From the IMG/VR virus record IMGVR_UViG_3300032308_002775, positions 1 through 64,000 of that record: DNA of 64,000 bases; one strand, given 5' to 3'. The position numbers were made by a program, and so were the translations under genes. The stretch comes from a virus. Positions 1,946 to 60,991 of the stretch are shown one piece after another. The first letter of the stretch is position 1; each line of letters opens with the position of its first letter. The notes under the pieces are model-generated. The model was given only the letters and a program-made list of their open reading frames with translations. It searched no databases and was not told the origin of the DNA.

Positions 1946-1977
1946 TTGGTATCGTTTCCCGGTCACATGAGGCAAGG

Positions 1978-2358
1978 ATGCCCGCAAAAGACCCTGACGT
2001 ACGCCGCGCAACCTGGCGGCGCTGGTATCAGAACAACAAGCACAAGCAAATTAAACGGGTGCGCAGCCAGTCTCGGCGCAACCGCACAGAGATCCAGCAG
2101 TACAAGAGCGCCACGCCCTGCGCCGACTGCAAGCAGTGCTATCCGCACTACGTTATGGACTTTGATCACGTCACCGGTGAAAAGCTCGCCAACGTCGCCG
2201 ACCTGACACGCACGAATCATTCTCGTAAGCAGGTCTGGGAAGAGATCGCCAAGTGCGAGCTGGTCTGCGCGAACTGCCACCGGGCGCGCACGCACTTCCG
2301 GCGCCAGGAACGGAAGAACAGCAAACACAAAGACGACAACGGCGCTACGGCTGCGTAA
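1978..2358 (+). CDS. HNH endonuclease (putative homing endonuclease)
   Basis: CADC...MDFDHV...CELVCANCHRART; start at ATG 1978 avoids overlapping the tRNA. Confidence 0.85.
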   Translation: MPAKDPDVRRATWRRWYQNNKHKQIKRVRSQSRRNRTEIQQYKSATPCADCKQCYPHYVMDFDHVTGEKLANVADLTRTNHSRKQVWEEIAKCELVCANCHRARTHFRRQERKNSKHKDDNGATAA

Positions 2359-2394
2359 CGCCAGCGATCAGCGGCATCGAACACAGGAGCGACC

Positions 2395-2700
2395 ATGGCA
2401 AACGAGGTAGATGAGATGTCCGCTGCATCGCGTGGTTCTCGGCCGGTGGCTTGGGCGGTCTGGTCGCCTGCCTTTGGCTACCCGTTTGGCGATGCGGCAA
2501 TCTTCAAGCGGAACGAACTTGCAATCGAAATGTGCGTGATGAATGGGTACGGCGTGGACGACATTGTTCCGCTGTATCGCAAGCCGATGCTGGAAGACGA
2601 GGAGTTGAAGGCGATCCGAAGGGCGGCGGCAATGGCGCGAGAGATGCATGACACGCGGCTAGAGGCTGCGTTGGGTGGCCTACTGGAACGACTAGGCTGA
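2395..2700 (+). CDS. Hypothetical protein
   Basis: ORF with AGGAG ribosome-binding site. Confidence 0.65.
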   Translation: MANEVDEMSAASRGSRPVAWAVWSPAFGYPFGDAAIFKRNELAIEMCVMNGYGVDDIVPLYRKPMLEDEELKAIRRAAAMAREMHDTRLEAALGGLLERLG

Positions 2701-2716
2701 GAACGCTGGGTTTCCC

Positions 2717-3640
2717 GTGCATCCGCGCAACTACTCTCACATTCCGCGCCGCAAATACATCGAACGGCAACCGGGCGCGCAGAACCTCGCCGGGTTGGAG
2801 GTCTTGCTTCACCTGGACTCGTTCTGCCTGGGCGACACAGTCTGCCTGGCTTCGTGCCTGCCGGACTTTGTGCGCCACCACCGGCCCAAGAAACTCTGGG
2901 TCACCACGTTCTGGCCCGAACTGTTCGACCAGGCCGCCGAGTTCGAGATCCTGGACGCTGTCTCTGCGAGCGCCGAGCCGCTCGAGTGCGATAAGCTCGT
3001 CCTGGCGGGGTATCGCAAGCAGAGCCTGACGCACACGACCCGCGGCATGTTTTACGCCGCCCGGGACTCGATGGGGCTTCCGGAAGCTCCGCCTGGCGCG
3101 GCGCCCACCCGGCCGCTTCTCCGGCGGCCCATAAGCGGGACTTACCAGCCCAACAAGATCGTGATCGCGCCGGAGAGCACCAAGCAAATTGCGCGTTGGG
3201 ACTATCTGGGCATAGATATCTATGGCTGGCAGGCGGTCGTGGACAACTTAGTTCAGCGCGGTTACGAGGTGCACGATATTTCCTACGAGCACACGCTGAT
3301 GCTCCGCGGCGTCACGAAGCACGGCGGTGACGCAGACATTCAGTCCGCGGTGCAGCATCTCTGCGAAGCGCGCCTGTTCATTGGCCTGAGCTCGGGACTT
3401 GCCTGGCTGGCCTGGGCACATGTAATTCCAGTAGTCATGATCGCGGGTTTCACCAAGCCGCAGAACGAGTTTCCCTGCTACCGGGTCGAGAATCCGTACG
3501 CCTGCTCAGGTTGCTTTAACGTGTTTCCCAACATTCAGCGCGCCTGCCCGCTTTTTCAGGGCACGCCGCGGGAGCACGAGTGCCACCGAACGATTACGCC
3601 CGCGATGGTCCTGGCGCAGGTCGATCGGGCCCTGGTTTGA
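2717..3640 (+). CDS. GT9-like heptosyltransferase (TibC/AAH autotransporter O-heptosyltransferase-like)
   Basis: LGDT motif, FIGLSSGLAWLAWA, C-terminal Cys cluster CSGCFN...CP...EC. Confidence 0.75.
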   Translation: MHPRNYSHIPRRKYIERQPGAQNLAGLEVLLHLDSFCLGDTVCLASCLPDFVRHHRPKKLWVTTFWPELFDQAAEFEILDAVSASAEPLECDKLVLAGYRKQSLTHTTRGMFYAARDSMGLPEAPPGAAPTRPLLRRPISGTYQPNKIVIAPESTKQIARWDYLGIDIYGWQAVVDNLVQRGYEVHDISYEHTLMLRGVTKHGGDADIQSAVQHLCEARLFIGLSSGLAWLAWAHVIPVVMIAGFTKPQNEFPCYRVENPYACSGCFNVFPNIQRACPLFQGTPREHECHRTITPAMVLAQVDRALV

Positions 3641-3683
3641 TATCATTGAGACGTGAAAACTCCAGAAATTCTCGGGTTGCGCC

Positions 3684-10349: not shown

Positions 10350-10428
10350 GAGCCGGTCTCCGCCAGCCAGGTATACTGGGGCTCCGCTCGGCAGGGAAGC
10401 CGGGCGCCCCTCATAAGGGACCCTGAGC

Positions 10429-10785
10429 ATGGCGGCTCGTTTTTCGAAGTACCAGGCCCTGGTGCGCATGTTGAAGAAGCACTGTCCTCCCGCTTATCCG
10501 ATTTCGGTGAAGCGCAAAAAGCTGCCCAAAAAGCTTGAAGGTCGGTGCTGGAAGGACGGCAAGCGGTTCTTCATCGAGATCGATAAGTCGATCGACGAAT
10601 ACCGAACCATGGACGTACTACTTCACGAGTGGGCGCACGCCAAGGCCTGGAACCACATGCTGGATGCCGCCAAGGACGACGAGGCGTTCAACAAGCTGGC
10701 CCACGACGCCGCCTGGGGCGTGGCCTATGCCGAGGTCTACTGCGTGTACGAACAGCAGTTCATTCCAGCCGTGTCCCGGATTTGA
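10429..10785 (+). CDS. Small HExxH metallopeptidase-like protein
   Basis: LLHEWAH, with downstream H..AWG. Confidence 0.65.
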   Translation: MAARFSKYQALVRMLKKHCPPAYPISVKRKKLPKKLEGRCWKDGKRFFIEIDKSIDEYRTMDVLLHEWAHAKAWNHMLDAAKDDEAFNKLAHDAAWGVAYAEVYCVYEQQFIPAVSRI

Positions 10786-11503: not shown

Positions 11504-11924
11504 ACCCGCCAAAAGATTCATTCTCAACGTCGAGCAGCGCGTCTACGTGGAGAAATCCTGGGGCCATGAGGATTGGATCTACAACGGCCGGTATTGCGGC
11601 AAAAAGCTGCACGTCCGGAAGGGCAAGGAATGCTCGTTCCACTACCACCGGGTCAAGGACGAGGTGATGTACCTCGAGTCTGGTAAAATCCTGCTTACGT
11701 ACGGCTGGGACGAGGACCTGAGCCATGCGGCGCAGATTACCCTGACGCCGGACATGGCGTTCCATATTCCGCCCGGAATGTGGCACAAGTTCCAAGGCCT
11801 GGAAGAGTCAGTAATCACGGAGTTCAGCACGCACCACAACGACAAGGACGTGGTGCGCGCGGGCAAAGACGGCATGGAGGCCGCCGACGATGAAGAAGCG
11901 GAAGAAGCAGGCGCCGTTAGGTAA
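11496..11924 (+). CDS. Cupin (mannose-6-phosphate isomerase-like)
   Basis: VEKSWGHE, SFHYHRVKDE, HIPPGMWHKF, EFSTHH. Confidence 0.8.
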   Translation: MAEPAKRFILNVEQRVYVEKSWGHEDWIYNGRYCGKKLHVRKGKECSFHYHRVKDEVMYLESGKILLTYGWDEDLSHAAQITLTPDMAFHIPPGMWHKFQGLEESVITEFSTHHNDKDVVRAGKDGMEAADDEEAEEAGAVR

Positions 11925-14900
11925 TTCTCCCCTGGAATTCGGCATCAAGTTCGCCCAGGGTCCGGCGACGCTAAAACCGGCCGCCACGCCGCCGTCCAAT
12001 GCCCTGCTGCCGTACAACATTCAGGGCTTTGGCGGCACGAGCAGTGCGCTGACCACTCCGCCTCCTGCGCCGCCCGCGAGAACGCCCGCTGTAAATTTCG
12101 CGCGGCGACTGGCCGACCCTACGCCGTTGATTCCAGGTCCGGCAAGCAGTCCAAAACCGCAGCCGCGGACCAACGCGCTAACAGCGTACAACACGTATGG
12201 CGCGGCAGGTCGCGACCTGGAGAACCAGGCGCTTGCGCAGGCCGCGCCTAGTGCGCCCAAGCCACCGGCGAACGCGACTCGCGCCGTAGATTTGGCTCGG
12301 CGACTGGCGGACCCGCGGCCTTTGATTCCGAGGCCGCCCATCAATCCGCAAACCAGCGCCTTGAATGCGTACAACACGTATGGCGCGGCAGGTCGCGACC
12401 TGGAGAACCAGGCGCTTGCGCAGGCAACAGCGCCGCCGCCACCCGCGGCGCCGCCTACGCCGATTCAGCAGGAGCTGCGCGCTCGGCAGACAGCGCTCGC
12501 GGAAGCCCGCGCGCGAAGTGAAGCGGCGGCCCGCGCCGAATCGGGCGACTGGTGGGCCAACCAGCTATCCGCCACCGACTACCTGACGGACGGTGGTGCG
12601 CGTTCCTTTGGCGAGAACGTGGCGTATCCCGCGCGGCAGGCGGTTGGGCAGGGCGTGGGCGCTGTTTCTCAGACTTTGAAAAACCAGGGCGTTCGCGGCG
12701 CCGGTCTTAGCAACACGATCAACTCTGGCATTGGCCAGTGGGGCAAGTGGCTCACGTCGCCGTGGAGCGCGCCCAAGCCGTTTACAGACGCCGAGCTCAA
12801 GGATTACCGCGCGCTGCAGGCGGCGAATACGCTGGGCGAACGCCGGATGACGCCTGAAGAGTTGTCGCGGGCGTCGGCCTACGATGAGCGGCAACGCGCG
12901 TTGAATCAGGAAAGAGTTCGCCAGGACTACTGGGATACCTATTCGACGCAGGCTGTGAACGATTCCGACAAGGCGTTTGCTACGGCGAAAGAAGTCACCG
13001 ATATGCTCGATCGGGGCGACAGCTTCGACGGCGTCAAGGCCGAGATCGTCAAGAGTCCAGGCGGCCAGCAACAGGTCGCCACTGTTCCCGTAGACCCGAT
13101 TCTCCGGGAGAAGCAGCGGCTGAACGAGCAGGCGGGCTACAACGAGTCGCCCTCGACGCTGGGCGCGCTCAGCAACGTCACGTATGGCGTAGGCGACGCG
13201 GCCTCGCAAGCGGCGCCGGGCATGATGGCGCTCAGTGGTGTGGGCACTGCAGCTAACACGGTCAGAGCGCTCAATGCTGCGCGGGCAGGTGGCGCCATGG
13301 CCGGACTGAATACGGCTGCAAACAGCGCCAACATGTTCAACCCGGCGGTGACGTTGAATCCGTTGAACGTCACAACGCTGCCTGGCGCGTTGGGGTACGG
13401 CGGCGCGATGATTGGCGGGGCAACCGCGGCGCCTGGTCTTGCGGAAGCCTTTGGCTCGAACGACGCGCAGCAACAAATGGATGCAGGCGCGGGACTGTTT
13501 AACAATAGCTTGACAGGCGGATTTTTGGGGACCGCCGCCGGGTCGCTCGCGCCCGCCGCGCTTGCTAATCGCGTCTATCCTGCCACCGCGGCCGCGACGC
13601 AGGCGACTACCGCAGCGGCGCCCGCGAGCAGCCTGCTGAATCGGGCGGTTGCCACGGCCGCGCCGCCTGTTGCCGTGGGTGCGGCGGCCGGGTATGCCGA
13701 CGGCGCGCGCAGAGACGCGCAAATGCAGGCCGACGACCAGGCGAGCGAGGTAGAGCCTAACGCGCAAGCGATTGCCGAGCAGCAGCAACAGCCAGGCGCA
13801 GCCAGCACTCTGGACATGGATCGCATTTCGCCTGCGTTTGCGGGCGCTGCTTCCAGGGTCAATGCAGGTAAGGGAACTGGCCAGGTCGGAACGCCGGTGA
13901 TGGGGCGACCTGATCTTGGGCAGCAGGGCGTCGTTCGGACCGAAGAAGATTCGGATTTTTACAACTGGATGCAGAGCAGCGACGCTTATCGCACGCCTGA
14001 CGGCAAGCCGGGCGCGATCGAGACGCAGGCGCTTGGCGCGGGCCAGGCAGCGTACAACGACGTTTTCCAGAAGACAGGCAGCAAGCAACAGGCGCTCGAG
14101 GCGCAGCAGGTGGCTTACGCGCAGACGTACACCGGCGCGTATCGCAAAGATCAGTCCGCGCAGTATGAGACCAGCGCGCAGCAGCTTGAGAAGCTGTTTG
14201 GCGACAACGCACCGCCCGAGCAGATTCAGACGCAGGCGCAGAAGACGATGCAGCATCTGGTGCGCTCTGACCCGCAAAACGCGGAGCAGGTTAAGCAGTA
14301 CACCCAGTGGCTCGATGCGCAGCAACGCGGCGAGCCGGTCGATAATCCTGCGGCCGTGGCCACCGATGAGGCCGCCCGCAAGAGCTTTGCTGCGCAGGCG
14401 GCGAAGGCCGCGCCTGCTGCAGGTGCAGCGCAAAATGATCCCAACGCGTTCGGTCAGTACATGGGCGGGATCATGGACCAGTTCAACAATCTGCCCACTG
14501 AGGCCAAGGCGGCGATCGGCATCGGCCTGCCGCTGGCGCTGGTGGGAATGCTCATGAATGCTTCCGGCGAGGGCGGCGGGCTGGACGGCATGTTATTTAC
14601 GGTCCTCGGCCTGGGCGCTGCCGGTTTGGGCGCTGCCGGTTCAGGCATGCTTGGCGACGGCGCACAGCAAATGGTCGGCAGCGGAATCGGCGGCCTGGCC
14701 AAGCTTTTTGGCGCGAACATTCCCAAGGACGGCGTGGACCTCTCGGCGCTTCTGTCCAAGGACGTCGTGGGGGACATCACCGCGCAGGCAGGCGGAGGCG
14801 GCGTCGGCGGCAAACTTAACGCTCTCTGGAACCTGGCCTCGGGCAACGCCGACGTCGAGGGCAAGCTGAAGCAGGTCGATCAGCTCAAGCAGCTCACCAG

Positions 14901-15733: not shown

Positions 15734-15775
15734 TAGATATCTTTCCCGCCTGCCACGGAAAGGAATCCTGGCGTC

Positions 15776-23720: not shown

Positions 23721-25016
23721 ATGCGCAGCTGGGATTTTTTTGACACGCTTTTTGGGCGGGCTTGCGGCGAGCCGTGGCGCGTGTTTGAGCTCATGGGCGG
23801 CGAAGAGTTTAAGCATTTTCGCCAACAGGCTGAGCAAAAAAGCGACAAGACGTTTGCGGGGATTTATCGGGAACTTCGGCAAATTACAAATTGGCCGCGG
23901 GAGCGCGTAGACACACTGCAGGCAGAAGAGTGGGAGTGGGAGCGGCGGCTTTCCTTTCCGATCTTTGAAAATGTACGCGACGTCAAATCGGGTGATTTGA
24001 TCATCACTGACACTTATTTTGACGCGCAGCAGGTTCGCGAGTTGGCAGACTGCATTCAGTTGCCCGCTGTAGACATCATTGCAACGTACGGCGGAAAACA
24101 TCACGGCACAGTTTGGAAAAATTTGCGCCGGTCGTCGCGCAAAATTGCAACACACACAGGCGATAATCGCCACGCAGACTATGACCAAGCGCGCAAACAC
24201 GGTTTTACGGCAATAAACTATCGCGCAGGTAGTTTTACGGGGCTTGAAAAAACTTTGATTATGGCGGGGCATTGGGACGTTGCAGGCTTAGCGAGAGCCG
24301 TGCGACTCCAAAACCCGCACCGGTCTCCAAGCTTGTTGTGGGGCGCGTGGAACAAACAGGCGCAGTACAATATTCCGTTCCTGTTGTTGTGCGCAGCAAA
24401 ATTACGGCAATATGTTGCCGATAACAATCACCAGCATGTTTGGTTTTTGTCGCGCGATACATGCCTGCTGCAGCGCGTTTTTATGGCGCTGTACCCCGAG
24501 GTTCCCGCGGAGACGTTCTACGCTAGTCGCCAGACGTATACGCACTCGTCGGAATCTTTTATTACCTATGCGCGCGCCGCAATCAACAAACCACGCCCGT
24601 TGTTTGTAGACCTTCAGGGCACCGGCAAAAGCGCGGCTGAATTTATCAACAAAACCCAAATTGCCTTGCCGTACCTGTTTTGCGCCATACCCAGCACGCT
24701 GGCCGCTTTTACGCCAGCATTGTATCGATTGAACTTTATCGGCACTGAGTTAGAAGTCTTCAATTACGATGTTCAAGGGCGGGTAATTGACGTGTTTGAT
24801 GGGCAGCCTGTGCGTGCGGCGCTGGAATACGATAAGAAAATAGTGCAGGCAAGCCACGCCGCAGTGGACTGCCTTTTGAAGCACATTTTTCGTTCGCCCG
24901 GAGCGCCAAGCAATGAGTTAATGGACATGTTGTTCCGGCATGTCCGCCGTCATGCGCCGCGAGAGTTGCTTAAACAACACCAGGCGCATCATCCATTTAT
25001 TCAATCAAAGGATTGA
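23721..25016 (+). CDS. HAD-like hydrolase of polysaccharide loci
   Basis: SWDFFDTL, TDTY, HTGDNRHAD, FLSRD, VDLQGTG. Confidence 0.7.
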   Translation: MRSWDFFDTLFGRACGEPWRVFELMGGEEFKHFRQQAEQKSDKTFAGIYRELRQITNWPRERVDTLQAEEWEWERRLSFPIFENVRDVKSGDLIITDTYFDAQQVRELADCIQLPAVDIIATYGGKHHGTVWKNLRRSSRKIATHTGDNRHADYDQARKHGFTAINYRAGSFTGLEKTLIMAGHWDVAGLARAVRLQNPHRSPSLLWGAWNKQAQYNIPFLLLCAAKLRQYVADNNHQHVWFLSRDTCLLQRVFMALYPEVPAETFYASRQTYTHSSESFITYARAAINKPRPLFVDLQGTGKSAAEFINKTQIALPYLFCAIPSTLAAFTPALYRLNFIGTELEVFNYDVQGRVIDVFDGQPVRAALEYDKKIVQASHAAVDCLLKHIFRSPGAPSNELMDMLFRHVRRHAPRELLKQHQAHHPFIQSKD

Positions 25017-25642: not shown

Positions 25643-25746
25643 AACAATCCTTATGGGGCTAGGCACGCGCAGCATCTTGCGCTATTTGTAATGCTGCCCG
25701 CTCGCTGCGTCCTTTGACAACCTGGTTTTGCGCTCGTCTGTTAAGA

Positions 25747-26022
25747 CGTGATAAATTGGTGTTTACGGGCGAAAGTCCGTAAATACCGCGAGTTGGTCGT
25801 GGTGGCCGACTGGTTAGGTGCTATTTCGGGCTGCATGGATGCACCCGGGGTAGCTGGATCCGTGGTCAGAGCATGACGTGAACACGGTCGGAGGCGCGGT
25901 GAATGCCACACGGGGCGAAAATATGCCTTTGTAAGTCACCGCTTAACCCCGGTTCGCCGGGGTCGGACCTGTGGGTAGGGGATCCCAGGAGCTTGCGGTA
26001 TACCAACAGCACTCTTATCGCG
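25747..26022 (+). ncRNA. Candidate large structured non-coding RNA (unknown class)
   Basis: Closing stem CGTGATAA/TTATCGCG, 13-bp GAAA-capped hairpin, TTCG-capped hairpin and nested long-range stems in a ~400-bp intergenic gap. Confidence 0.65.
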
Positions 26023-27084: not shown

Positions 27085-27094
27085 GGCGCTGGCC

Positions 27095-28720
27095 ATGGAC
27101 GGCTTTTCTATTCTCGATCCTTTGGCGTGGGACCCGGCGGCTATCAAGCTGCACCCCGCCTACGTCGCTGGCAACACGGCGGCTTGCCTGTCGAAGACCG
27201 GCGCCGCCAACGGCACTAACCACTATCTGGCCGGGCGGCTGTACGTCTCCAAGAGCGGCTGGCTGCTCTTGTCGGTGCCCAACGCCCTGGTGCGCGGCGT
27301 ATTCGACGCCATGACCGCTCCGGGCGCCGAATTACCGCTCGCGGGCGCGCTTAACGTTCCGGACGTTAAACCCGACCTGCTCAACGCCCACATCTCGGTG
27401 ATGACCGCCGAGGAGGTCAGCAAAATCGGCGGCGACAAAATCAACGAGCGAGGGCACAACTTTCACTACGCTTTGGGCCCAGTCAAAGAGATCACGCCCA
27501 AGAACATTGACGGCATCAGCCGCGTCTGGGCGATCCAGGTCGCCAGCCCCGAGCTGGCCGCCCTGCGCAAGAGCTACGGCCTGTCGGCCCTGCCCAACGG
27601 CGACCACCCGTTCCACATCACGGTGGCTGTACGCAGGAAGAACGTCCTGGGCGCCAACGAGGTTGCCAAAGTCGACGGCAGCCGCGGCGAGCTGAAGGCG
27701 GCAGCAGTCTACAACTTTGAAGGCGACGTCCAGGGCGTCAGCCTCCGCAAAACCTTGCACCGGGTGCTCGACGATTTGAATCGCCCCGGCGTGATGTACA
27801 ACAACGCGCGAACCAGTGAGGCCCGCGCGGTGATTCCAGGTTCTAAGATGCAGCGCGAAGAGGTGTTAGATCTGTTGCGTTTCTATCTGTCGACGCGCAG
27901 CGGCCGCAAAGGGCCGCTTCAGGAAGGCGTGGACTACAAGATCACGCCGCTGCCCCAGGAAAAAGAGAAGCTGCGCAAAGTTACCATGCGCCCCGCCGAT
28001 GTGCAGAAGTTCGTCCGCGCGCAAGGTTTCAACCAGCTGGCAGCGGAGAACGAGGACTATCAGAAGCAGTGGCTCGGCGAGCGTTACCGTCTGCAACCTG
28101 ACGCCCGCGGCAATCTTCGCGGCGCCGTGCCTGATCTGGCGCACAAACAGCTCTTTAGCGGCGAGCCGGTTTACAACTATCAGCTGACGCCCGGCTGGAA
28201 CGGCACAAAAGACGCCCAAGAACTGTTGTCCGGCGGCGAGGCGGACCACAAGCCCGATAGCGAGTTTCCCCAGGAGGCCTTGGCAGAAGGCAAGAAGCAT
28301 GAGCGCGAGCACACAGACAATGCAGAAGTCGCCAAAGAAATTGCCAAGGATCACCTGTCCGAAGACCCGGCCTACTACGAAAAAGCCGAAATCCTAGAGA
28401 AGCTGTCAAACAGCGTTTACTTCAACCAGGCGCTGCAGGCGTTTAATCCCGCCGCGATCAACGCGCCGATTGCGTACGATCCCAACAAGCCAGTTTTTGA
28501 GAATCTCAGGAATCAGCTCGGCGAGGCCAAGCGCCGCGGCGACTTCATTCTGCAGACGCAGCGCAACCAACGGGCTTGGCAATCGGCGCTCGACCCGCAG
28601 TACCGTTACCAGCTGGCGATGCAGGCGATCCGCGGCGAGATGCCCCAGCCGAGCGTCACTGACCAGCTCATCGAGATGTACGGCGACCAGGCGCTAGCTC
28701 GTACCGGACTTGGGAGATAA
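27095..28720 (+). CDS. Multidomain protein: 2H phosphoesterase + acylphosphatase-like + EH..D...IAKDHL.E...YY domain
   Basis: HISV and HITV motifs; FEGDVQGVSLR; EREHTDNAEVAKEIAKDHLSEDPAYY. Confidence 0.6.
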   Translation: MDGFSILDPLAWDPAAIKLHPAYVAGNTAACLSKTGAANGTNHYLAGRLYVSKSGWLLLSVPNALVRGVFDAMTAPGAELPLAGALNVPDVKPDLLNAHISVMTAEEVSKIGGDKINERGHNFHYALGPVKEITPKNIDGISRVWAIQVASPELAALRKSYGLSALPNGDHPFHITVAVRRKNVLGANEVAKVDGSRGELKAAAVYNFEGDVQGVSLRKTLHRVLDDLNRPGVMYNNARTSEARAVIPGSKMQREEVLDLLRFYLSTRSGRKGPLQEGVDYKITPLPQEKEKLRKVTMRPADVQKFVRAQGFNQLAAENEDYQKQWLGERYRLQPDARGNLRGAVPDLAHKQLFSGEPVYNYQLTPGWNGTKDAQELLSGGEADHKPDSEFPQEALAEGKKHEREHTDNAEVAKEIAKDHLSEDPAYYEKAEILEKLSNSVYFNQALQAFNPAAINAPIAYDPNKPVFENLRNQLGEAKRRGDFILQTQRNQRAWQSALDPQYRYQLAMQAIRGEMPQPSVTDQLIEMYGDQALARTGLGR

Positions 28721-30962: not shown

Positions 30963-30991
30963 CCGTATTTCTCGCAGGGACGCGACTTATC

Positions 30992-31801
30992 ATGGCAAGG
31001 ACGCCATCAAATCACGTTCTGCCGACCGGAGAAATCCTGCGCAAGCTTTTTGCGTTCGGATACTTTGGCTCAAAGACCTGGGCCAAGGTTCGGCAGATCA
31101 AAGGCGCAGAGCTGACGCGCGCCATCCGCGAGTACCAGCGTTTTCACGGCCTGGATCCGGATGGCCGCGTCGACGAAACCACGGCGCACGTACTTGAACG
31201 GCGCCGCTGCGGGCTGCCCGACTTCAACTTTTCGGCGGGCGACACGGAGTGCAAGTGGCCGCACAAGGCGATCACCTACCACCCCAAGCTTGTGCTGCCA
31301 GGCATCAACGCCGAGCAGGCCAAGCAGGCGTTCGACATCGCTTTCAGTCAGTGGGCTCGTGTTTGCAACATTGAGCCGGAGTACGTGGAGGATCCGAAAA
31401 AAGCCAACATCCTGGCGCGTTCGGGCAAGGGCAAGAAGAGCGGCCTGGACGCCCGCGGCGGAACACTGGCCTGGAGTGAGCTGCCCTGCGGCGTTCACGA
31501 GAACATCCAGCTCGACCAGATGTACGACGAGGCGGAGGCCTGGAGCTTTAACATGGCCGTCGCCGTGATGTGCCACGAGCTGGGGCACGCCCTGGGCCTG
31601 CCCCACCTGGCCAACGGCAACCTGATGGCGCCCTACTACGACCCGAACGTCACCGAGCCCCAGGAAGGCGACATCCGTGAGATCCAGGACCTGTACGGCA
31701 AGCGCAAGGTGCCGTACTCCAAGCTCAAGGACGCGTCGATCGAGCTGGGCGGCACGATCATCATCAACGGCAAGCCTTACGTCCTCGTCCCAAAAACTTG
31801 A
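30992..31801 (+). CDS. Matrixin (M10A) metalloprotease with PG-binding-like prodomain
   Basis: AIREYQRFHGL..DG, cysteine switch RCGLPD, HELGHALGLPH, Met-turn LMAPYY. Confidence 0.9.
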   Translation: MARTPSNHVLPTGEILRKLFAFGYFGSKTWAKVRQIKGAELTRAIREYQRFHGLDPDGRVDETTAHVLERRRCGLPDFNFSAGDTECKWPHKAITYHPKLVLPGINAEQAKQAFDIAFSQWARVCNIEPEYVEDPKKANILARSGKGKKSGLDARGGTLAWSELPCGVHENIQLDQMYDEAEAWSFNMAVAVMCHELGHALGLPHLANGNLMAPYYDPNVTEPQEGDIREIQDLYGKRKVPYSKLKDASIELGGTIIINGKPYVLVPKT

Positions 31802-33169: not shown

Positions 33170-33190
33170 ACGAAGTAACCGGAGGTTGCC

Positions 33191-34216
33191 ATGGACGGCG
33201 AAGTTTTCTTTGAATCGGTTTTCGACGTACAGAAGGCCTACGAAGAGGGTTTCGTCGGCGCGATGTGCGACCCTGAGCATACGGACATGCTCAAGGCCGC
33301 CATTGCGGAGGCAGGCGGCCTTCCTGAAGGCGCGATGGCCTGCGCGGCCTACGGTCTTCAGGAAACCGGCAAGGGAAAGCTCAGCGCCCCGTTCCTGGAC
33401 GTTCTGTCGCTCTACCCGGACTGCCTCCCGGGTGGCGCCCAGGGACGCGGCGACTGCGTTTCGTGGTCGACCCGCAACGCCGGGCTGGTCACGATGTGCA
33501 CCGACATTACCAGCGGACTGGCCGACGAGGAGACTGGTAACGTCGAAGGCGCGCCGGAGATCTCCGACAAGGCCCGACTGAACGGCGTGCTCAGCACCGA
33601 GGCGATTTACAACTGGCGCCGTCATGGCGGGGACGGCTGGTTCTGCTCGGACGCCGCTCGGGTCGTCATGAAGGAATCGGGTCTCTGGATTCGCAGGGCG
33701 TATCCCGAGATTAACGTCGACTTCGAAACGTACTCTTCGCGCAACGCCGGGCTTTACGGTTCGCGCACGCCGCCGGAGTCCTGGCTCAAGATCGGTCAGC
33801 AGCACCTGATCCGCTCGACCACGGTGCTCGAGAGTTACGAAGAGGTTCGCGACATGCTCGCGAACGGTTACGGAATTAGCTCCTGCGGCGGCGAGTCGTT
33901 CTCGTCGGAGCGTGACGCAAATGGCGTGTCGCGACGCACGGCAAAGGGCTGGGCGCACGCGATGGCCTACATTGCGGTTGATGAGCGCCCCGAGATTATC
34001 GAGGTTTACAAAGAGCCCCTGATTTGCGTCCAAAACAGTTGGGGAAATTGGAATGACGGAAGTCGCAAGATCATGGATACGAACCTCCTGATCCCCATCG
34101 GCGCCTTCTGGGCGCGCTGGAGCGACCTGAAGAACCGCGACGCGATCGCCTTCTCGAGCTTTAACGGCTGGAAGCGCAAACCGCTGCGCAACTGGGGCGC
34201 GCTGGGCAACATTTAA
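33191..34216 (+). CDS. Papain-like (C1) cysteine protease
   Basis: QGRGDCVSW, WAHAM, QNSWG. Confidence 0.85.
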   Translation: MDGEVFFESVFDVQKAYEEGFVGAMCDPEHTDMLKAAIAEAGGLPEGAMACAAYGLQETGKGKLSAPFLDVLSLYPDCLPGGAQGRGDCVSWSTRNAGLVTMCTDITSGLADEETGNVEGAPEISDKARLNGVLSTEAIYNWRRHGGDGWFCSDAARVVMKESGLWIRRAYPEINVDFETYSSRNAGLYGSRTPPESWLKIGQQHLIRSTTVLESYEEVRDMLANGYGISSCGGESFSSERDANGVSRRTAKGWAHAMAYIAVDERPEIIEVYKEPLICVQNSWGNWNDGSRKIMDTNLLIPIGAFWARWSDLKNRDAIAFSSFNGWKRKPLRNWGALGNI

Positions 34217-39800: not shown

Positions 39801-41261
39801 GTCTACGAGAAGTTTGTTAACCAGCTCAAGGGCGCTGGAATTAACACCGTGCGCGAAGGGACAAAGACGCACATCATGGCGGTGACCGACCGCGACATCG
39901 ATGAGCTGGCCGGGGCCCGCGAGGTCACCAACTCCGAGACAGTCGACTGGAAGGGGCGGCTCAAGCCGATCAAGGGCGGCCTGTTCGATGAAACGCTCAC
40001 CGGCGGCCACGGCGGCAACCGCTGGAGCAAGATCACGCTTCACGAACCGATGCCCAACCCGGTCATGGAGGAGCCAATCCGCCGGGTGCTCGGGCTTACC
40101 GAGAAAGAGTTCCGCGGAGTGCTCGCCGGGCAGGTGCAGCTGTTCGACAAGACCGGCCCGGAGGCCATCCAGGGCGCCCTGGGGCGGATCAACCTGCCCA
40201 AGGCGATCGAGCAGGCCAGGTTAGATATCAAATCGGGACGCAAGACTTTGCGCGACGCCGCCGTGCGGAAGCTGGGATACCTCAAGAACGCTGAATCGAC
40301 CGGCGTCCATCCCAAGGACTGGATGATGAGCAAGGTCGGCGTGCTCCCGCCGATTTTTCGGCCCGTCTCCACGATGGGCGCCAAAAAGTTACCGCTCGTG
40401 GCCGACGCGAATTACCTCTACAAGGAACTGCTCGACGCGAACGACACGCTCAAGGAAGCCTCCGGCGCCCTGAGCGAATACAGCGACGAACGGCTGGGCC
40501 TGTACGACGCCATGAAGGCCGTCTCCGGGTTGGGCGATCCGACGCAGCCCAAGAATCAGGAACGCCGTGTGAAGGGCTTTTTGCAGCACGTCTTCGGCAG
40601 TTCGCCCAAGTACGGCACCGTGCAGCGCAAGCTTCTCTCGACCACGGTCGACTTGGTGGGGCGGGCAGTTATTACGCCGAACCCGGACCTCGACATGGAC
40701 CAGGTCGCGCTTCCCGAGGACAAGGCCTGGGAGGTCTACAAGCCGTTCGTGGTGCGGGGCCTGGTGCGCCGCGGAATGCCCCGGATGAATGCGCTGGACG
40801 CCGTCGAAAACCGCAACAAGGCGGCGTACGACGAGCTGAACACGCAGATGTCGTCCCGGCCGATCGTCATTAACCGTGCGCCGGTGCTCCATCGATACGG
40901 TATGATGGCGTTTTATCCGAAGCTCACCAAGAACAAGGTTATGGAGGTTAACCCGGTCATTACCAAGGGTTTTGGCGCCGACTTTGACGGGGACGCGATG
41001 CAGTATCACGTTCCCAGCACCGAGGACGCCGCCAAGGAAGCCGTCGAAAAAATGCTTCCAAGCAAAAATCTCTTTTCGACGGCAAGCTTCAAGGCCCACT
41101 TTGTTCCGAACAGGGACTATCAGACCGGGGTTTACCTGGCTTCGAGCCGGGTCGACAAGAAACAGAAGCCGAGGGTATACAAGTCACGGCAGGACGCCAT
41201 GAACGCCTATCGCCGCGGGGAGATTGACGTCGACACCCCGGTGCATATCGTCGAGAGTTAA
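36846..41261 (+). CDS. Phage DNA-directed RNA polymerase: beta subunit fused to the N-terminal (catalytic) half of beta'
   Basis: Beta motifs RTPESGKVG, NYEDAVVIS, GDKLTGRYGDKGVV, SPLGLISRVN, MKLHH; beta' motifs VLPPIFRP, VDLVGRAVI, NRAPVLHR, GADFDGDAM. Confidence 0.95.
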   Translation: MSAMPDSILSGPPAPITPTPQPQAPLQTRSFGDIGALRTNIFDRALQSASSLEPIKNDLYTLQLANVAYTGPERFTKADQKKAVLTGNSLHRRLTGTWNLIDNTTGAPIATRQQTIAHVPYLTDSGTFVNRGVEYTLAHQMRLKAGVYTREKDNGELEAHVNVLPGKGRMHRYFLDPKTGVMNINIGQAKIPLMPLLKAMGAKDSDIRAAWGNEITAVNMEKGDAGTLDKLYQRLVYRQTPGIDAAAKQKAIADEFARMELDPDVTRRTLGKEYKNLTPEAILDITKKLIALNRKEADPDDRDAMAYQSIVGPEDLISERFTKDKQALRKLLWKATAKKNLDHVPTGVFNKAIQAALIGSGLGSSLEEINPAEIFDHQGRVTRMGEGGIGSLDAVPQESRSVQPSHLGFVDFLRTPESGKVGVDMRFARGAMKGTDGKIYTPVVNIQTGETEMKTPGELAETPLAFPGEEKTDMPMVAALVGGKMQYVPREEVQFSLPNMDSTFSALSNMVPLKSMMKGQRAVMASRMFTQALPLSGAEAPLVQSAVVDKDGVSHEDEMGEKLGAVKAQFHGQVVSAEPGMIVLRDREGKKHEIDLYNDMPFNRKTFWHQTPVVKPGDVIKPGQLLAHSNFTDPSGTAAMGKNLRVAYLPYQGKNYEDAVVISESAAKKLTSEHMYQHEAEWTENSHVGKKAFVALFPGEYDKKQLENFDDKGAIKKGTVVNYGDPLILQAKAKETTYGKVHRGRAGNFMNETLTWEHHSPGVVTDVEHTDKGVSVVVKSQAEMQVGDKLTGRYGDKGVVADIVPDHRMPQDKDGSPYEVLVSPLGLISRVNPAQVVEAALGKIAAKTGQPFKLKDFDSAQDLVEFAQNELGKHGLSDTEDVTDPETGRKIKSVLTGNRFFMKLHHTAESKGQGRAMSSYTAEGTPAKGGSEGAKRVGMLDLGALLSHGAGKVIRDAKMVRGQANPEYWSQFMAGYTPPLPKVPHVYEKFVNQLKGAGINTVREGTKTHIMAVTDRDIDELAGAREVTNSETVDWKGRLKPIKGGLFDETLTGGHGGNRWSKITLHEPMPNPVMEEPIRRVLGLTEKEFRGVLAGQVQLFDKTGPEAIQGALGRINLPKAIEQARLDIKSGRKTLRDAAVRKLGYLKNAESTGVHPKDWMMSKVGVLPPIFRPVSTMGAKKLPLVADANYLYKELLDANDTLKEASGALSEYSDERLGLYDAMKAVSGLGDPTQPKNQERRVKGFLQHVFGSSPKYGTVQRKLLSTTVDLVGRAVITPNPDLDMDQVALPEDKAWEVYKPFVVRGLVRRGMPRMNALDAVENRNKAAYDELNTQMSSRPIVINRAPVLHRYGMMAFYPKLTKNKVMEVNPVITKGFGADFDGDAMQYHVPSTEDAAKEAVEKMLPSKNLFSTASFKAHFVPNRDYQTGVYLASSRVDKKQKPRVYKSRQDAMNAYRRGEIDVDTPVHIVES

Positions 41262-41274
41262 CACGGAGGTTTCC

Positions 41275-44123: not shown

Positions 44124-44204
44124 TTCTGTAGGATGTAAGAGCTGCGACACGGTAAATTGTTGCTTACACGTGTCTTAAGATTGTGCCGCACGGAGGTGGC
44201 TACT

Positions 44205-49860: not shown

Positions 49861-49871
49861 GAGGACACGGC

Positions 49872-50981
49872 ATGGACGCCGAAAAGCTAGACGACATTTC
49901 GCGTTCCCTTGCGCTTTGCGCCGTGACGGGTAACCGCTCGGAGCTTGTCAAGGTCGCTGCGGAATACACCAAGCAAGCGGCCGGGCCCATGGATTACCTG
50001 GCCAATCCCTATGTGCGCAATGCGCTGCTGGGTCTTGGTGCCGGTGGCCTGGTTGGAATGCTGCAGCCCAAGCGCAAGCTGCGTAACGCGCTGACGTATG
50101 GTCTCGTCGGCGGCCTGGGCGGCGTGGGTTTGACTCCGCTGCTCAATCAACTTGGCGCGGCTGAAGCAGCTGAACCAAAACCCGATCAAACGGCCGGGCG
50201 CGAAGTTAAAGATCTTGGCGCCGCGGCAGAGATGGTGGCAAACGCCGACCCCGAGGCGCGCCGCGCTGTCGGCGCTGGAATCGGCGCCCTTACCGGCGCC
50301 TCAGCAGGTTATCGCGGCACCGTCGGTTTGCTGAAAAACCGTAACGCGCTGCAAAACCTGCTGGACGTGGAGACGAACGCCGCCAATGCTCGCAACTGGC
50401 GAGGGGCGCCGCGGCCCGCGCAGGTCAGTAACGACACTCTCGCTGCGCGCCAGGCGTTGCTGCCCGTGCGAAATGCGCTACAGCCGGGTGCGCCCAGGCC
50501 GCAGCAGCAGGCGTTTGTTGATGAAGTCATCCGCACCGCGCCTGGAGCAAGCCCGTCGGCGTCCCCCGACACGCGGCGGCTTCAGGCATTGGCGACACTC
50601 GGCGACGCCAGCGAAGCGGTGCGCCCTGGCGGCGTTCCGTTTTTACGTCGCGAGTCTCTTCCCGCTTTTATCCGCAACAGGCTCCCTGGGACCGACGGCA
50701 CGCGCGCGCTGGCGGCGCTTTCCGAAGCGGCCCAGGCCGCTGAAACTAGCGGCGCAGCGGCTGCTGGCGCCCCGGTCCGCGCAACACCGTCGGCAAACCA
50801 GCTTCACAGAGCGCTTGCCGAAGCAAACCGGCTTGCGCCCACGACCTGGCGGCAGCGCGCCGCCGGTGGGTTGGGCGCAATGGGCTTGGGCTATCTCGGC
50901 AGCCTTCTTGGTGGCTCGCTTGGCGAAGGTCAGGCAAACTTTGCAAACAGAGCCTTCCAGCAGAAAGCGTTCGGGCAATAA
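49872..50981 (+). CDS. Glycine-zipper protein (putative virion/ejection protein)
   Basis: KVAA..TKQAA, then several GxxxG hydrophobic segments. Confidence 0.65.
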   Translation: MDAEKLDDISRSLALCAVTGNRSELVKVAAEYTKQAAGPMDYLANPYVRNALLGLGAGGLVGMLQPKRKLRNALTYGLVGGLGGVGLTPLLNQLGAAEAAEPKPDQTAGREVKDLGAAAEMVANADPEARRAVGAGIGALTGASAGYRGTVGLLKNRNALQNLLDVETNAANARNWRGAPRPAQVSNDTLAARQALLPVRNALQPGAPRPQQQAFVDEVIRTAPGASPSASPDTRRLQALATLGDASEAVRPGGVPFLRRESLPAFIRNRLPGTDGTRALAALSEAAQAAETSGAAAAGAPVRATPSANQLHRALAEANRLAPTTWRQRAAGGLGAMGLGYLGSLLGGSLGEGQANFANRAFQQKAFGQ

Positions 50982-54246: not shown

Positions 54247-54294
54247 TTTCACATGGATCTGTGATTACCACGAAAAAGACATGGAGGTCTTAAC

Positions 54295-54840
54295 ATGGCA
54301 ACTGCTCCCAATCTGATCACTGAGAAGGGGCTCGACGTCAAAAAGGGCTGGTTCCAAATGGCCGCCCTCGACTACGACGCCAAGCTCGCTTCGGCTGTCT
54401 CCTTCGACGTTCCGCGCGGTCGCGTGGTCCACGTCGACTCGGACGGCAACTTCCGCCCTGGTGCGCACAACACCGGCGTTGCGATCTTCCTGCTCAACGG
54501 CTCGGCCGAGGCGGACGTCAGCAACCCCGGCACCACGGCTTCTGGCAACTTCATGCACCGGGCCATCGCCCCGACCGGCAAGATGTCCGGCCTCGTGGCG
54601 ACGGGTGGTTACGAGATTGCGTCGACTGAGTTCGACTCGTCCCGCACCTACACCCCGGGCGATCTGCTCACCGCGACGGCTTCGGATTCGAACGCCACGA
54701 CCGGTGGTCGGATCACGAACCAGTCGGTCACGCAGTTTGTGACGCCGGTGGTCGGCGTTGTGTCGTCCGGTAAGGCCAAGAACCACAACGGGGTCTACGC
54801 GCTGTCCTTCTGGTCGGCGTGGCTCCCGGGCGAAGCCTGA
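54295..54840 (+). CDS. Putative capsid decoration/cement protein
   Basis: Beta-rich ~180 aa immediately upstream of the capsid gene; YTPGDLLTA. Confidence 0.6.
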   Translation: MATAPNLITEKGLDVKKGWFQMAALDYDAKLASAVSFDVPRGRVVHVDSDGNFRPGAHNTGVAIFLLNGSAEADVSNPGTTASGNFMHRAIAPTGKMSGLVATGGYEIASTEFDSSRTYTPGDLLTATASDSNATTGGRITNQSVTQFVTPVVGVVSSGKAKNHNGVYALSFWSAWLPGEA

Positions 54841-54880
54841 ATCCATCCTTAGTCACACCCGGAACATGGAGGTTCCTTAA

Positions 54881-55807
54881 ATGCCTACTCAGCAAGAAAT
54901 CCAGCTGCTCAACGAGACCCTCTTCGAGCAGCTCGACACCCCCGGCATGCAGAAGCAGGCCGTTGACGCTGTTAACGACTTCACGCGCACCAAGATGCGT
55001 GAAGACGGGTTCTATCGGCGGATTATGCCGCCGCTCACCATCACCAATGACGAGCTCGACCGCCAGGTCGATACCGACAAGCCGGTGAAGGTGGTCGACA
55101 AGGAACCCGATTCCCCCGCGGCTGTGTCGCTTCCGTTCGCGACGCTCCCGATCAACTTCTACATCCGTGGCCCGCGCTACCGCGTCATGTTTGACCGGAT
55201 CGTGTCGCCCCGCGCTGTGAAGGACGTCGACGAGCTGCGCACCTACGTGATCGACATCCGGCAGGTTCTTTCCGACAACATGATCAAGGACATGTTGGCG
55301 GAAGAGGACTCGAAGTTCATCGCGGCCCTCGACGCCGTCCTCCCGACCCCGGGTGTGGCGAACGTCGCTTCGGGTGCGGTGCAGTACGAGGAAATCCACG
55401 GCGGCATCACGCGTGAGACGATTGTCGACGCGCTGAAGGTCATGCCGCGGACGCCCTCGCACTTCGAGGTCGAGACCTGCCTGGTGAACAACATCACCAT
55501 CAAGGAGCTGCTGAAGTTTGGCCGCGACGAGATGGGTGGTGACTTCTCGCAGGACATCATCAAGAACGGTTGGGCGGAGACCAACTTCCTCAACTGCCGC
55601 TGGATCGTCACGATCAAGCGCGACCTTGTTGACGACGACACGATGTACATGTTCGCGTCGCCCAAGTTCATTGGCAAGAATTACGAGCTCGAGCCGACCA
55701 CGATGTACATCCGTCGTGAGGCTTACATGCTCGAGTACTTCGCCTACAACACGCAGGGCGGCTCGTTCGGTCACACGAACGGCCTGGCCCGCGTGGACTT
55801 CAAGTGA
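54881..55807 (+). CDS. Major capsid protein (HK97 fold, putative)
   Basis: Position after protease/scaffold/decoration genes, strong RBS, strongly biased codons, 3' hairpin; MLAEEDSKFI backbone-helix-like segment. Confidence 0.75.
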   Translation: MPTQQEIQLLNETLFEQLDTPGMQKQAVDAVNDFTRTKMREDGFYRRIMPPLTITNDELDRQVDTDKPVKVVDKEPDSPAAVSLPFATLPINFYIRGPRYRVMFDRIVSPRAVKDVDELRTYVIDIRQVLSDNMIKDMLAEEDSKFIAALDAVLPTPGVANVASGAVQYEEIHGGITRETIVDALKVMPRTPSHFEVETCLVNNITIKELLKFGRDEMGGDFSQDIIKNGWAETNFLNCRWIVTIKRDLVDDDTMYMFASPKFIGKNYELEPTTMYIRREAYMLEYFAYNTQGGSFGHTNGLARVDFK

Positions 55808-58631: not shown

Positions 58632-58636
58632 ACTTC

Positions 58637-58684
58637 AGAAAAGCGTTCGCGCACCGCCCTTCGGGGCGGGCGCGGCGTTTTTCT
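58637..58684 (+). terminator. Intrinsic terminator
   Basis: CCGCCC-TTCG-GGGCGG hairpin with extended stem and T-tract. Confidence 0.7.
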
Positions 58685-58716
58685 TAGCTATCAGCGCGCC
58701 CAGCTACAATAAGCCT

Positions 58717-60024
58717 ATGTCCAGCTTCAAGCGCTTATTTCCGTTCCGCCAGGTGGCCGTGGATCACATGGTCCGCGGCGTCACCCGGGTCTGGTGGCAG
58801 CTGGAGCGCAACTTTAACGACCCCGGCCCGTACGTCTTCCAGCTCCAGTACGGCAACACGCCGCTCAACGACGCCACGGACTGGCGCAACGTCGGCAGCC
58901 CAGTCACCGACGGCTACGTGGCCTACGACGACGCTTGGCGCGCTGCCGGGACGGACATCGTCACCCATTACCGGGTAACACTGACGACCGAGAAAGATAT
59001 CTATGTCAGCGCCCCGGTGAACTGCTTCGGGGAGCTGGCCGAGCGCGACTGGAACATCGCCCGGGAGATCATCCGCAAGGAGCAGCTGCGCCACAAGTAT
59101 GTCTCGGTCTCGGGCTACCTGATCAAGCCGTTCCGTTTCGGGCGGCCCTGCACCCGCTGCCGCGACCAGCTCACCGGCGAAGTGCTCGATTCCAACTGCC
59201 CGGTCTGCTCGGGAACCGGCTTCGAAGTCGGCTACCACCCGGCTCTGCCGCTGCAATGCTGGGACGTGGCGCCCTATACGATTACTGAGGATCAGGAGAT
59301 TAACTCCCTGGGCACGACCCGCAAAGACCACATGACGCGGGCCCGGGTAATTGGCTTTCCGACGCTCAACACCAACGATATCTGGGTTAACGGCACCTCC
59401 GACGAGCGTTGGATCATCCACAGCATTAAGGTCGCCGCGGCCATTCGGGGCGTGCCGCTGATCTACGAGGTTGAAATGGGTTTGGTGCCCCTAACCAACG
59501 CGATCTACGCGCTGGAAGTGGGCGGCGAGCCTCCGGAGCGCCCAGGCCCGACCCTGCCGATCATTGGTTGCGGCTCCGTGGTGGTCGACCACAATTACGG
59601 CGGCGTCGATAACCTGACTTACCGGGATGCCACCGGCTACAGCATCGTCGGCGCTAACGTCTATGTGTTTCCCAAAGATATCTTTGACGCCGCCTACCCG
59701 GACTTGCCCAACCGAAACCTGGCCGTCGCCGGAACCACGACGCGCGTTAACGGCCGCTGGACTGAGTCGCTACTCCTGAATCCGGGCGACTACGCCGTCC
59801 TGTATGAAAAGCCCGGCGAGTGGGGACCGGACACCGATCTGATTACTGTGGTTCCCGCTGACGCGGAAAGCTCCTTTACCTGGGTGCCGAACATCGCCCT
59901 GGCCGCCGAGGAGGGCAGCTCGATTCCTGACGCCACGCTGGCCACAGAGTCGAGCGAGGCGGTCACCACCGAGACCGAGGAAAAGGTTCGGGCGCCGCTG
60001 GACGACGATTTCTGGGCCTTCTAA
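58717..60024 (+). CDS. Putative head-closure/neck protein with Zn finger
   Basis: CTRC...CPVCSGTGF; position between adaptor and tail genes. Confidence 0.55.
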   Translation: MSSFKRLFPFRQVAVDHMVRGVTRVWWQLERNFNDPGPYVFQLQYGNTPLNDATDWRNVGSPVTDGYVAYDDAWRAAGTDIVTHYRVTLTTEKDIYVSAPVNCFGELAERDWNIAREIIRKEQLRHKYVSVSGYLIKPFRFGRPCTRCRDQLTGEVLDSNCPVCSGTGFEVGYHPALPLQCWDVAPYTITEDQEINSLGTTRKDHMTRARVIGFPTLNTNDIWVNGTSDERWIIHSIKVAAAIRGVPLIYEVEMGLVPLTNAIYALEVGGEPPERPGPTLPIIGCGSVVVDHNYGGVDNLTYRDATGYSIVGANVYVFPKDIFDAAYPDLPNRNLAVAGTTTRVNGRWTESLLLNPGDYAVLYEKPGEWGPDTDLITVVPADAESSFTWVPNIALAAEEGSSIPDATLATESSEAVTTETEEKVRAPLDDDFWAF

Positions 60025-60144
60025 TAGCGCGCAACTGTTAAACCGTGTATCGTATGGATAACGACAAGAAACCAAGCCCGATGCTCCCCAAGATCAAGCT
60101 CCGGGGCGCGAAAATCCGGATGCTGCCCCAAATAAAGCTGCGCG

Positions 60145-60885
60145 GTGAAAGCGCGGCAAAGGACGGCTCGCGTGACCGACTGCAACGACCTGCCGAATCC
60201 GCCGGAAGTTGAGGCGCTGTTCCCCGAGGGGAGCGTGCCGGAACCGCGCCTGAACAAGGTCAGTGCGCTGTGTTCCTACGGTATGCGGCCGCACGTTATG
60301 ACCGGCCTGATCCGGCAGCTGCTGCTCGGGCACTTTTCGGACCCAGACAATATTGAAGAACCCCGCGTCCGGCGGCAGCTGGCTGAGATCGGCATGTGGC
60401 GGCCGAGTGATAACGGTTTGAACGCGGGCGGCATTCTGATAGAAAGTATTACGCGTTGGCAACCCGCAACCGCTGACAAGCGCCCGGCTGTGTTAATTCG
60501 CAGAAATTCCTGGCGTTGGCAGCGGCAAGGAGTTGGCGACCAAATCGGCGGCAATGTATACGAGGGTTCGCTGAGCTACGCCGGAATGTGGGAGGGCAGC
60601 CACACGTTGTTCTGCCTCTGTCCGAGCGGTGCCGAAACCGAGTTCCTTGCCACGGAAGTCGTTAAGTTTTTACACCAATTCTCCCCCTGGATTCGCGAGC
60701 AGATGAATCTTCACCGGTTCATGGTGAGCGAAGTTGGCGGGATCGGAGAAGTTCAAGAAGCGTTACAGGGTTACGCCGTTCCTGTAACGGTTGCATATGT
60801 TGCCGAGGAAGCCTGGACGCTCCAGCCGTATGCGCCGCGCCTTAAGCGGATTGTTCTGAAGGCGACTGACCTCTTGTCGTACTAA
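60145..60885 (+). CDS. Putative tail terminator/completion protein (start may be 60172)
   Basis: RPAVLIRR; immediately upstream of the sheath gene. Confidence 0.5.
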   Translation: MKARQRTARVTDCNDLPNPPEVEALFPEGSVPEPRLNKVSALCSYGMRPHVMTGLIRQLLLGHFSDPDNIEEPRVRRQLAEIGMWRPSDNGLNAGGILIESITRWQPATADKRPAVLIRRNSWRWQRQGVGDQIGGNVYEGSLSYAGMWEGSHTLFCLCPSGAETEFLATEVVKFLHQFSPWIREQMNLHRFMVSEVGGIGEVQEALQGYAVPVTVAYVAEEAWTLQPYAPRLKRIVLKATDLLSY

Positions 60886-60991
60886 GGAAAACCAATCACC
60901 CGCGTGAACAGGTATTTTTTTTCATGACAACGGGTTGGATATACTAACCCAGTCACTACCGTTCACGACACTAGGCATGGAGGCCTGACGC

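Follow-up and report, generated by a model that had tools for sequence, protein, structure and literature searches.

The 64 kb of phage DNA analysed here (the window) form the start of a 153,669-bp contig (IMG/VR record IMGVR_UViG_3300032308_002775; CheckV completeness 75%), in which short RNA hairpins presenting an ANGGAN hexaloop cover the Shine-Dalgarno (SD) sequence or the start codon of many genes. These hairpins exist far beyond chance, are gene-specific and are retained by compensatory change; a csrA gene is present and intact in the same genome, and csrA and hairpins are distributed together within the phage family. On this evidence the hairpins, predicted to be conserved cis-acting RNA elements of the high-affinity CsrA/RsmE type on about 16 phage genes, are very likely binding sites for CsrA-family proteins, and we give a probability of about 0.65 to the reading in which the phage's own CsrA is their main reader and represses translation. 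At the core of the predicted target set are the virion's most abundant proteins: the major capsid protein, the decoration protein and the tail sheath. A first-pass annotation of the window had quoted 12 hairpins, all of which are present exactly as written and at the positions given for them; a systematic scan recovers them and adds two. Its proposal, a CsrA-type regulon whose reader is either the host's or the phage's CsrA, is supported by the controls, the csrA gene and the comparative evidence described below, as far as sequence can speak to it.

We defined a start site as an ANGGAN hexamer with its GGA between −20 and +12 relative to a called start, and a hairpin as at least three flanking Watson-Crick pairs. 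Over the whole 153.7-kb genome, 17/78 start sites carry a hairpin at this threshold and 9 do at a threshold of at least four pairs. The earlier proposal implied that such hairpins should outnumber those of shuffled, SD-containing controls, and they do: when left flanks were permuted among the identical SD-containing sites (5000 permutations), the mean was 1.8 hairpins and the maximum 11, so that 0/5000 permutations reached 17 and the observed count is about nine times the control. Hairpins were found at 16/405 coding-strand ANGGAN sites away from starts (Fisher, 1e-6 against start sites) and at 2 of about 210 sites on the opposite strand. A definition that does not depend on gene calls agrees with the enrichment, in this genome and in its relatives. 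The window holds 12/16 target genes, as against 68/183 of all genes (p = 0.002). At 60% G+C, and with GGAGG followed by T favouring partial self-complementarity, one could suppose that the hairpins are a chance by-product of base composition or SD context; this is refuted by the flank permutation, by the strand asymmetry, by the compensatory changes and by the lack of enrichment in csrA-less relatives that span 49–66% G+C, and we leave it practically no weight.

The pattern also proved to be more than GGAGG, as the first-pass annotation had maintained. Hairpins occur at 17/78 start sites whose first loop base is A, as compared with 0/37, 0/37 and 1/24 where it is C, G or T, and the NNGGAN register gives 18/176 versus 1–5/176 in other loop sizes and registers, the one exception (a value of 9) being a nested 8-nt reading of the identical hairpins. 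The closing pair is C-G in 16/20 stems when G-U pairs are allowed, giving the consensus CANGGANG, and in 132/174 stems across the csrA-positive relatives. The hairpins therefore have what a high-affinity CsrA/RsmE site has: GGA at positions 3–5, A first, a C-G closing pair and overlap with the SD sequence or start. Seven of the eight hairpins tested with RNAfold are the minimum-energy local structure.

These features bear on a function that would not involve CsrA at all, with the hairpins acting as SD-presenting tuners of ribosome loading, as mRNA stabilisers, or as sites for another phage RNA-binding protein or nuclease. Many loops are merely the SD core GGAG(G) and the fold energies are modest, and T4-type phages have other translational operators (RegA) as well as a GGAG-specific nuclease (RegB), all of which count in its favour. 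SD function does not, however, explain the A-first loop, the fixed hexaloop register or the C-G closing pair; the loops AAGGAT, ATGGAC and AAGGAC lack GGAG, some loops contain the AUG instead of the SD sequence, and csrA-less relatives with equally many SD sites show no hairpins. For the stabiliser version in particular, in close relatives the decoration and capsid genes are represented in freshwater metatranscriptome contigs, one of which crosses the capsid hairpin, beginning 110 nt upstream; this hints that the hairpin is internal to the transcript and not a 5'-terminal stabiliser. Taken together, we regard a CsrA-free function as quite unlikely.

Conservation in related loci provides separate support for the hairpins as elements in their own right. 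That stem sequences differ yet stay paired had been noticed within the window, and it extends to compensatory changes at the capsid, decoration and sheath hairpins across related loci. The capsid protein retrieves 65 related loci (55–98% identity), in which the C-A-Y-GGAG-G core of its hairpin is invariant and the stems vary and compensate (ggaac/gttcc, agaac/gttct, aagac/gtctt, ggac/gtcc, gcac/gtgc, gatc/gatc). Among 38 distinct sequences, 87.9% of cells are paired versus 68.4% in shuffles, and 32 cells are changed on both sides versus 8.4; 0/500 shuffles reach either value, and slid registers collapse. At the decoration gene 45/58 related loci retain the hairpin, their stems varying in a compensatory way, and at the sheath gene 28/44 do, with several stem variants; for nine neighbouring genes hairpins are seen in 0–10 of 16–59 loci. 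Other targets were also traced: ggc-ATGGAY-gcc, at the position of the hairpin at 49868, is retained in 2/4 relatives, and in one relative (G009) the matrixin ortholog carries tggc-ACGGAA-gcca and the ortholog of gene 41275–42009 carries tttac-ATGGAG-gtaaa. A hairpin is present at 16/29 target orthologs and 20/211 non-targets in csrA-positive genomes, and at 0/10 and 0/37, respectively, in csrA-negative ones.

The window itself had shown no csrA, and a host- or phage-encoded copy had been postulated. A PF02599 profile search located one in the same phage genome at C1:101016-101219, 37 kb past the window end, as an intact open reading frame (ORF) of 67 amino acids. The match (C1:101016-101165) has an E-value of 1e-21 and 74.5 bits against a cut-off of 27, and covers profile positions 1–50 of 53; the protein also matches the PHROG 'CsrA-like regulator' (2e-14) and can be aligned over its full length with CsrA/RsmE chains of known structure (PDB, E ~1e-8). 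It (MLVLSRK...QVSVVRAEL) retains L2, L4, R6, K7, V40, V42, R44, E46 and L47. The RNA-binding residues of the family, which we take to lie in strands beta1 and beta5, would be L2, L4, R6/R7, V40, V42, R44 and I47 in E. coli numbering. Judged by its sequence, the phage protein is a bona fide member of the CsrA/RsmA family with the RNA-binding residues intact. By homology it would be expected to form the interdigitated homodimer of this family, which has two faces for RNA. Its closest CsrAs are on other large viral contigs (58–91% identity); beyond these, identity falls to about 55%, the generic bacterial level.

Across the relatives (given G numbers, this phage being G000), csrA was found in 16/25 records, and in 15/18 of those at least 90% complete. 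We reran the start-hairpin test on 13 whole relatives. The csrA-positive genomes far exceed permutation means of about 2–4, with hairpins at 17/79 start sites in this phage, 17/81 in G015, 43/174 in G012, 18/121 in G013, 27/92 in G009 and 8/130 in G010. The highest load, 46 hairpins at starts (37/92 at the SD position, 24/90 in leaders), is that of G011, which is also csrA-positive. The near-complete csrA-negative genomes are at the permutation expectation (1/117 in G018, 2/133 in G017 and 2/148 in G016). Of four partial records, G019, G021 and G025 are enriched for hairpins with csrA not found in the sequenced part, and G020 has neither enrichment nor csrA in its sequenced part. As these records are 68–84% complete, they were not counted for or against, save for a syntenic deletion in G019 discussed below.

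The mechanism that we favour is one in which a dimer of the phage CsrA, possibly jointly with any host CsrA, would clamp the hexaloops; the clamped loops would occlude the ribosome-binding site or start codon, and this occlusion would set the timing or dose of translation from the target mRNAs. The loops are the SD sequence or the AUG itself, and the model with the most support is one in which a CsrA dimer would cover the region where initiation takes place. We infer physical binding, the identity of the CsrA that binds and the relief of repression, and by analogy the sign of the effect would be repression. To our knowledge, all SD-overlapping CsrA sites repress initiation.

Several observations weigh against a repressing regulon read by the phage's own CsrA. 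G010 has csrA yet is only weakly enriched (8/130). In a ten-core-protein tree, one branch with full support separates G016, G017 and G018 from the other genomes; since the csrA-less genomes form one clade, a single evolutionary event could explain the co-distribution of csrA and hairpins. G019, the sister of csrA-positive G012, is missing csrA and half of a flanking gene at the syntenic site, and despite this it has hairpins at 8/99 sites versus 1.6 expected (the record is 84% complete). Its csrA may have been lost recently, leaving a regulon in decay; a copy may lie in the missing 16% of the record; or a host CsrA may read the sites. Local fold energies are no lower than those of shuffles (RNAfold), which points to weak, shape-specific hairpins and not to strong roadblocks. 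Most targets have a single hairpin only, and the density of a second GGA or ANGGA within dimer-bridging distance is the same at targets as at non-targets. Second hairpins do occur near 10.8% of targets versus 2.2% of non-targets, a difference driven by one genome; without that genome the counts are 6/128 targets versus 18/919 non-targets (p = 0.06). It is hard to see why a phage would repress its most needed late proteins without some means of release, and candidates for one were not found: the phage genome has no FliW homolog, no Rfam family, sponge RNAs included, was detected in the window or at 88.6–94.7 kb of the genome, and no sponge-like cluster (at least three hairpins within 300 nt) occurs in the 153.7 kb, with about 25% of the genome absent.

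Some of the same data would suit a host CsrA/RsmA as the main reader, with the phage csrA serving to manipulate host physiology or defence and both hairpins and csrA tracking Csr-bearing hosts. Phage csrA correlates with host csrA, and host-directed roles have been proposed for it (Campa et al. 2021, PMC8450108). The loops also follow the general bacterial consensus, and G019, which lacks csrA at the syntenic position, retains an attenuated hairpin set. SD hairpins, however, occupy just 0/39 and 2/31 sites in two unrelated GenBank phages that bear csrA, Pseudomonas phi297 and Vibrio 431E45.1, respectively. The host genera of these two phages presumably carry CsrA/RsmA, so that infecting a CsrA-bearing host need not produce hairpins. 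Hairpin load, moreover, peaks in G011, the relative with a tandem-fused CsrA. We consider a host protein unlikely to be the main reader.

Returning to the phage's own CsrA, a more ambitious version of its role would be an autonomous circuit that couples capsid, decoration and sheath translation to the state of particle assembly, as a viral counterpart of the FliW-CsrA-flagellin checkpoint, in which a basic tract and 'NGLERP' tail of the protein would be the handle for an antagonist and tandem-fused CsrAs an elaboration. We think this improbable and offer it as speculation. The tail itself (a basic stretch, then a conserved NGLERP-like motif) is present in the CsrAs of G000, G001, G002, G006, G007, G008 and G009 and missing from the G011–G014 type, and may serve partner binding. 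The CsrA of G015 has an insertion of about 25 amino acids after beta1. G011 (224 kb, 69% G+C) encodes a 184-amino-acid ORF on the minus strand (C1:11292-11729, locus L071) with two tandem CsrA domains, of which the second is interrupted after beta1 by about 35 extra amino acids; it may be a single-chain pseudo-dimer.

The position of csrA also varies by subclade, which suggests relocation or repeated acquisition. In G000 and G009 it is on the bulk coding strand, directly 3' of a 224-amino-acid core gene, and in G011, G012 and G013 it stands alone on the other, seldom used strand, upstream of the capsid gene at a distance of about 36 kb. In this phage the 224-amino-acid gene ends 15 nt before csrA and has a hairpin of its own over its SD sequence (ggaa-AAGGAT-ttcc, C1:100312-100325, outside the window), so CsrA could feed back on its own operon if the two genes are co-transcribed. 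As the gene bears a hairpin and the gene order mirrors fliW-csrA, it was considered as a FliW-like partner. This was rejected, since the gene is core and also found in csrA-less relatives, and its adjacency to csrA is limited to the closest clade.

The hairpins of the window are all on the + strand and fall into two positional classes, one in which the loop is the SD sequence (GGA at −15 to −9) and a start-codon class (GGA at −2 to +7) whose loops contain or abut the AUG (ATGGAC at 27095, 33191 and 49872; also 1974 and 30997). Those at the decoration, capsid and sheath genes are aagac-ATGGAG-gtctt (54276..54291), over the SD sequence of gene 54295–54840, called head decoration by position only; ggaac-ATGGAG-gttcc (54861..54876), over that of the major capsid gene 54881–55807; and (t)aggc-ATGGAG-gcct(g) (60972..60987), over that of the tail sheath gene 60992–63811, identified by PHROGs. 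A fold search for the capsid protein with an AlphaFold2 model (14-sequence alignment) was abandoned because the mean predicted local distance difference test score was 46.8, too poor for use, and its label therefore derives from a profile match to PDB 6wkk and from Atlas neighbours.

Further SD hairpins are cggc-ATGGAG-gccg (11870..11883; present in the minimum-energy fold) before the gene for a 1090-amino-acid protein without a family match (11890–15162), aac-ACGGAG-gtt (41260..41271) before gene 41275–42009, and the two that the scan newly added: gga-AAGGAA-tcc with an A-U closing pair (15757..15768), before a PhoH-like gene (15776–16492), and tca-AAGGAT-tga (25005..25016), before gene 25019–25642, which has a weak glucosyltransferase PHROG match. 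The weakest is gccgc-ACGGAG-gtggc (44185..44200), over the SD sequence of gene 44205–46580, a candidate that needs G-U pairs: it has one Watson-Crick pair followed by G-U, lies outside the minimum-energy fold and is unconserved in eight relatives.

At start codons, ggc-AAGGAT-gcc (1971..1982) overlaps with its loop the ATG (1978) of an HNH endonuclease gene (1978–2358; HNH by PHROGs). The start codon lies within the loop of ggcc-ATGGAC-ggct (27091..27104; gene 27095–28720, with a 2H phosphoesterase domain), of ttgcc-ATGGAC-ggcga (33186..33201; gene 33191–34216) and of cggc-ATGGAC-gccg (49868..49881; gene 49872–50981). Gene 33191–34216 had been labelled papain in the first-pass annotation, a name that finds no support in Pfam or PHROGs, where the gene has no family match. 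The matrixin gene (30992–31801) has a tandem pair with a GGA-to-GGA spacing of 21 nt. The upstream half, tcgc-AGGGAC-gcga (30972..30985), has an alternative pairing favoured by the minimum-energy fold, and atggc-AAGGAC-gccat (30992..31007) has the ATG within its stem. The gene product combines a matrixin domain (PF00413) with a peptidoglycan-binding domain (Pfam PF01471) and may act in lysis. The target set is wider than the suggested structural and lysis genes, since it also takes in the HNH endonuclease, PhoH-like and glucosyltransferase-like genes.

Two more hairpins are candidates: a possible accessory site, the perfect 7-bp tgagcat-ACGGAC-atgctca (33274..33293) 90 nt inside gene 33191–34216, and a possible leader site, the 8-bp cgctcggc-AGGGAA-gccgggcg (10385..10406), 34 nt before gene 10429–10785. 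Elsewhere in the window, the intergenic stretch 25740–26045 (+), before gene 26038–26376, gives a much more stable fold than its shuffled versions (−130 kcal/mol, z = −3.3) and matches nothing in Rfam; it includes a hairpin, tgc-ATGGAT-gca, at 25832–25843.

The phage genome has a G+C content of about 60% and carries nearly all genes on the + strand; 184 genes were called with a codon-usage and ribosome-binding-site scorer, covering 92% of the genome. Products encoded in the window include virion proteins, among them the tail sheath and major capsid protein, and an RNA polymerase beta-like chain of the multisubunit type. This 1468-amino-acid protein (36855–41261, +) matches phage RNA polymerase beta-subunit PHROGs, and so the phage's own multisubunit RNA polymerase is encoded inside the virion-gene region. 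Outside the window, C1:88753-94503 (locus L182) holds four + strand genes of atypical codon composition that were missed by the gene caller, including a 684-amino-acid protein with collagen triple-helix repeats (PF01391, 1e-29) that is probably a fibre. The region at 88.7–94.6 kb had been considered as a non-coding sponge RNA and was rejected because it contains these genes. The phage is an uncultured jumbo phage, as are its relatives of 190–235 kb, and sequencing runs that have words in common with it (Logan contigs; small word shares) bear lake, freshwater and aquaculture labels. With the capsid region as query, GenBank phages gave no nucleotide match.

CsrA is among the best-studied bacterial post-transcriptional regulators, and phage copies of it have so far been interpreted only as tools for host manipulation; here, cognate sites are predicted on the phage's own virion mRNAs. 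Compensatory conservation throughout a large freshwater jumbo-phage family, together with absence in csrA-less relatives, points to a virus-internal regulon built from a borrowed regulator. If this is true, it would add a layer of late-gene control atop the phages' own RNA polymerase, and would mean that SD-overlapping phage hairpins can be regulatory and not incidental. The system is small (a protein of 67 amino acids and RNAs of about 16 nt), and the family offers natural contrasts in its csrA-less relatives, in the csrA deletion at the usual site and in the tandem-fused CsrA.

Among known systems, the closest in form are the bacterial leaders bound by CsrA/RsmE, for which the CANGGANG apical hexaloop has been described (PMC4894983). 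RsmE-hcnA (PDB 2jpp) and E. coli CsrA-glgC have the same short stem, C-G closing pair and A-N-GGA-N loop over the SD sequence, and the bacterial proteins belong to the same family as the phage CsrA and have its key residues in common. Unlike these leaders, here the virus encodes both the regulator and the putative targets, which are its own virion genes; most phage targets carry only one hairpin, without enrichment of a second site, and a sponge RNA was not found in the window or the 153.7 kb. Closest in the kind of target is CsrA-FliW-flagellin (B. subtilis hag, C. jejuni flaA; PMC4894983), where likewise the most abundant self-assembling subunit has GGA hexaloops at the SD sequence. The matrixin pair has the GGA spacing of the flaA leader (21 nt), which comes close to the optimum of 18 nt given for bridging by a dimer (PMC4894983). 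The phage differs in having no FliW homolog and in that many genes, not one dominant mRNA, would be targeted.

Mobile elements with a CsrA-family gene are not new either. Phage and plasmid homologs of csrA/rsmA are listed in earlier catalogues (Sobrero and Valverde 2020, PMC7366521; Campa et al. 2021, PMC8450108), IMG/VR contigs with csrA-family genes were already known (PMC7366521, PMC8450108), and the plasmid-encoded RsmQ is reported to take global regulatory control of its Pseudomonas host (PMC9928087). The catalogued proteins resemble the phage CsrA as products of a mobile element, but their action has been proposed or shown on host mRNAs (behaviour, CRISPR-Cas), and in the literature we found no report of cognate CsrA sites on a mobile element's own structural genes. 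The new aspect would thus be a putative CsrA regulon internal to a virus, phage csrA genes themselves being already known.

In T4, the phage proteins RegA, gp32 and gp43 bind the translation-initiation regions of several phage mRNAs. The principle is the same as that proposed here, with unrelated protein folds and RNA motifs; T4 RegA acts on early mRNAs, whereas in this phage the predicted targets are virion genes.

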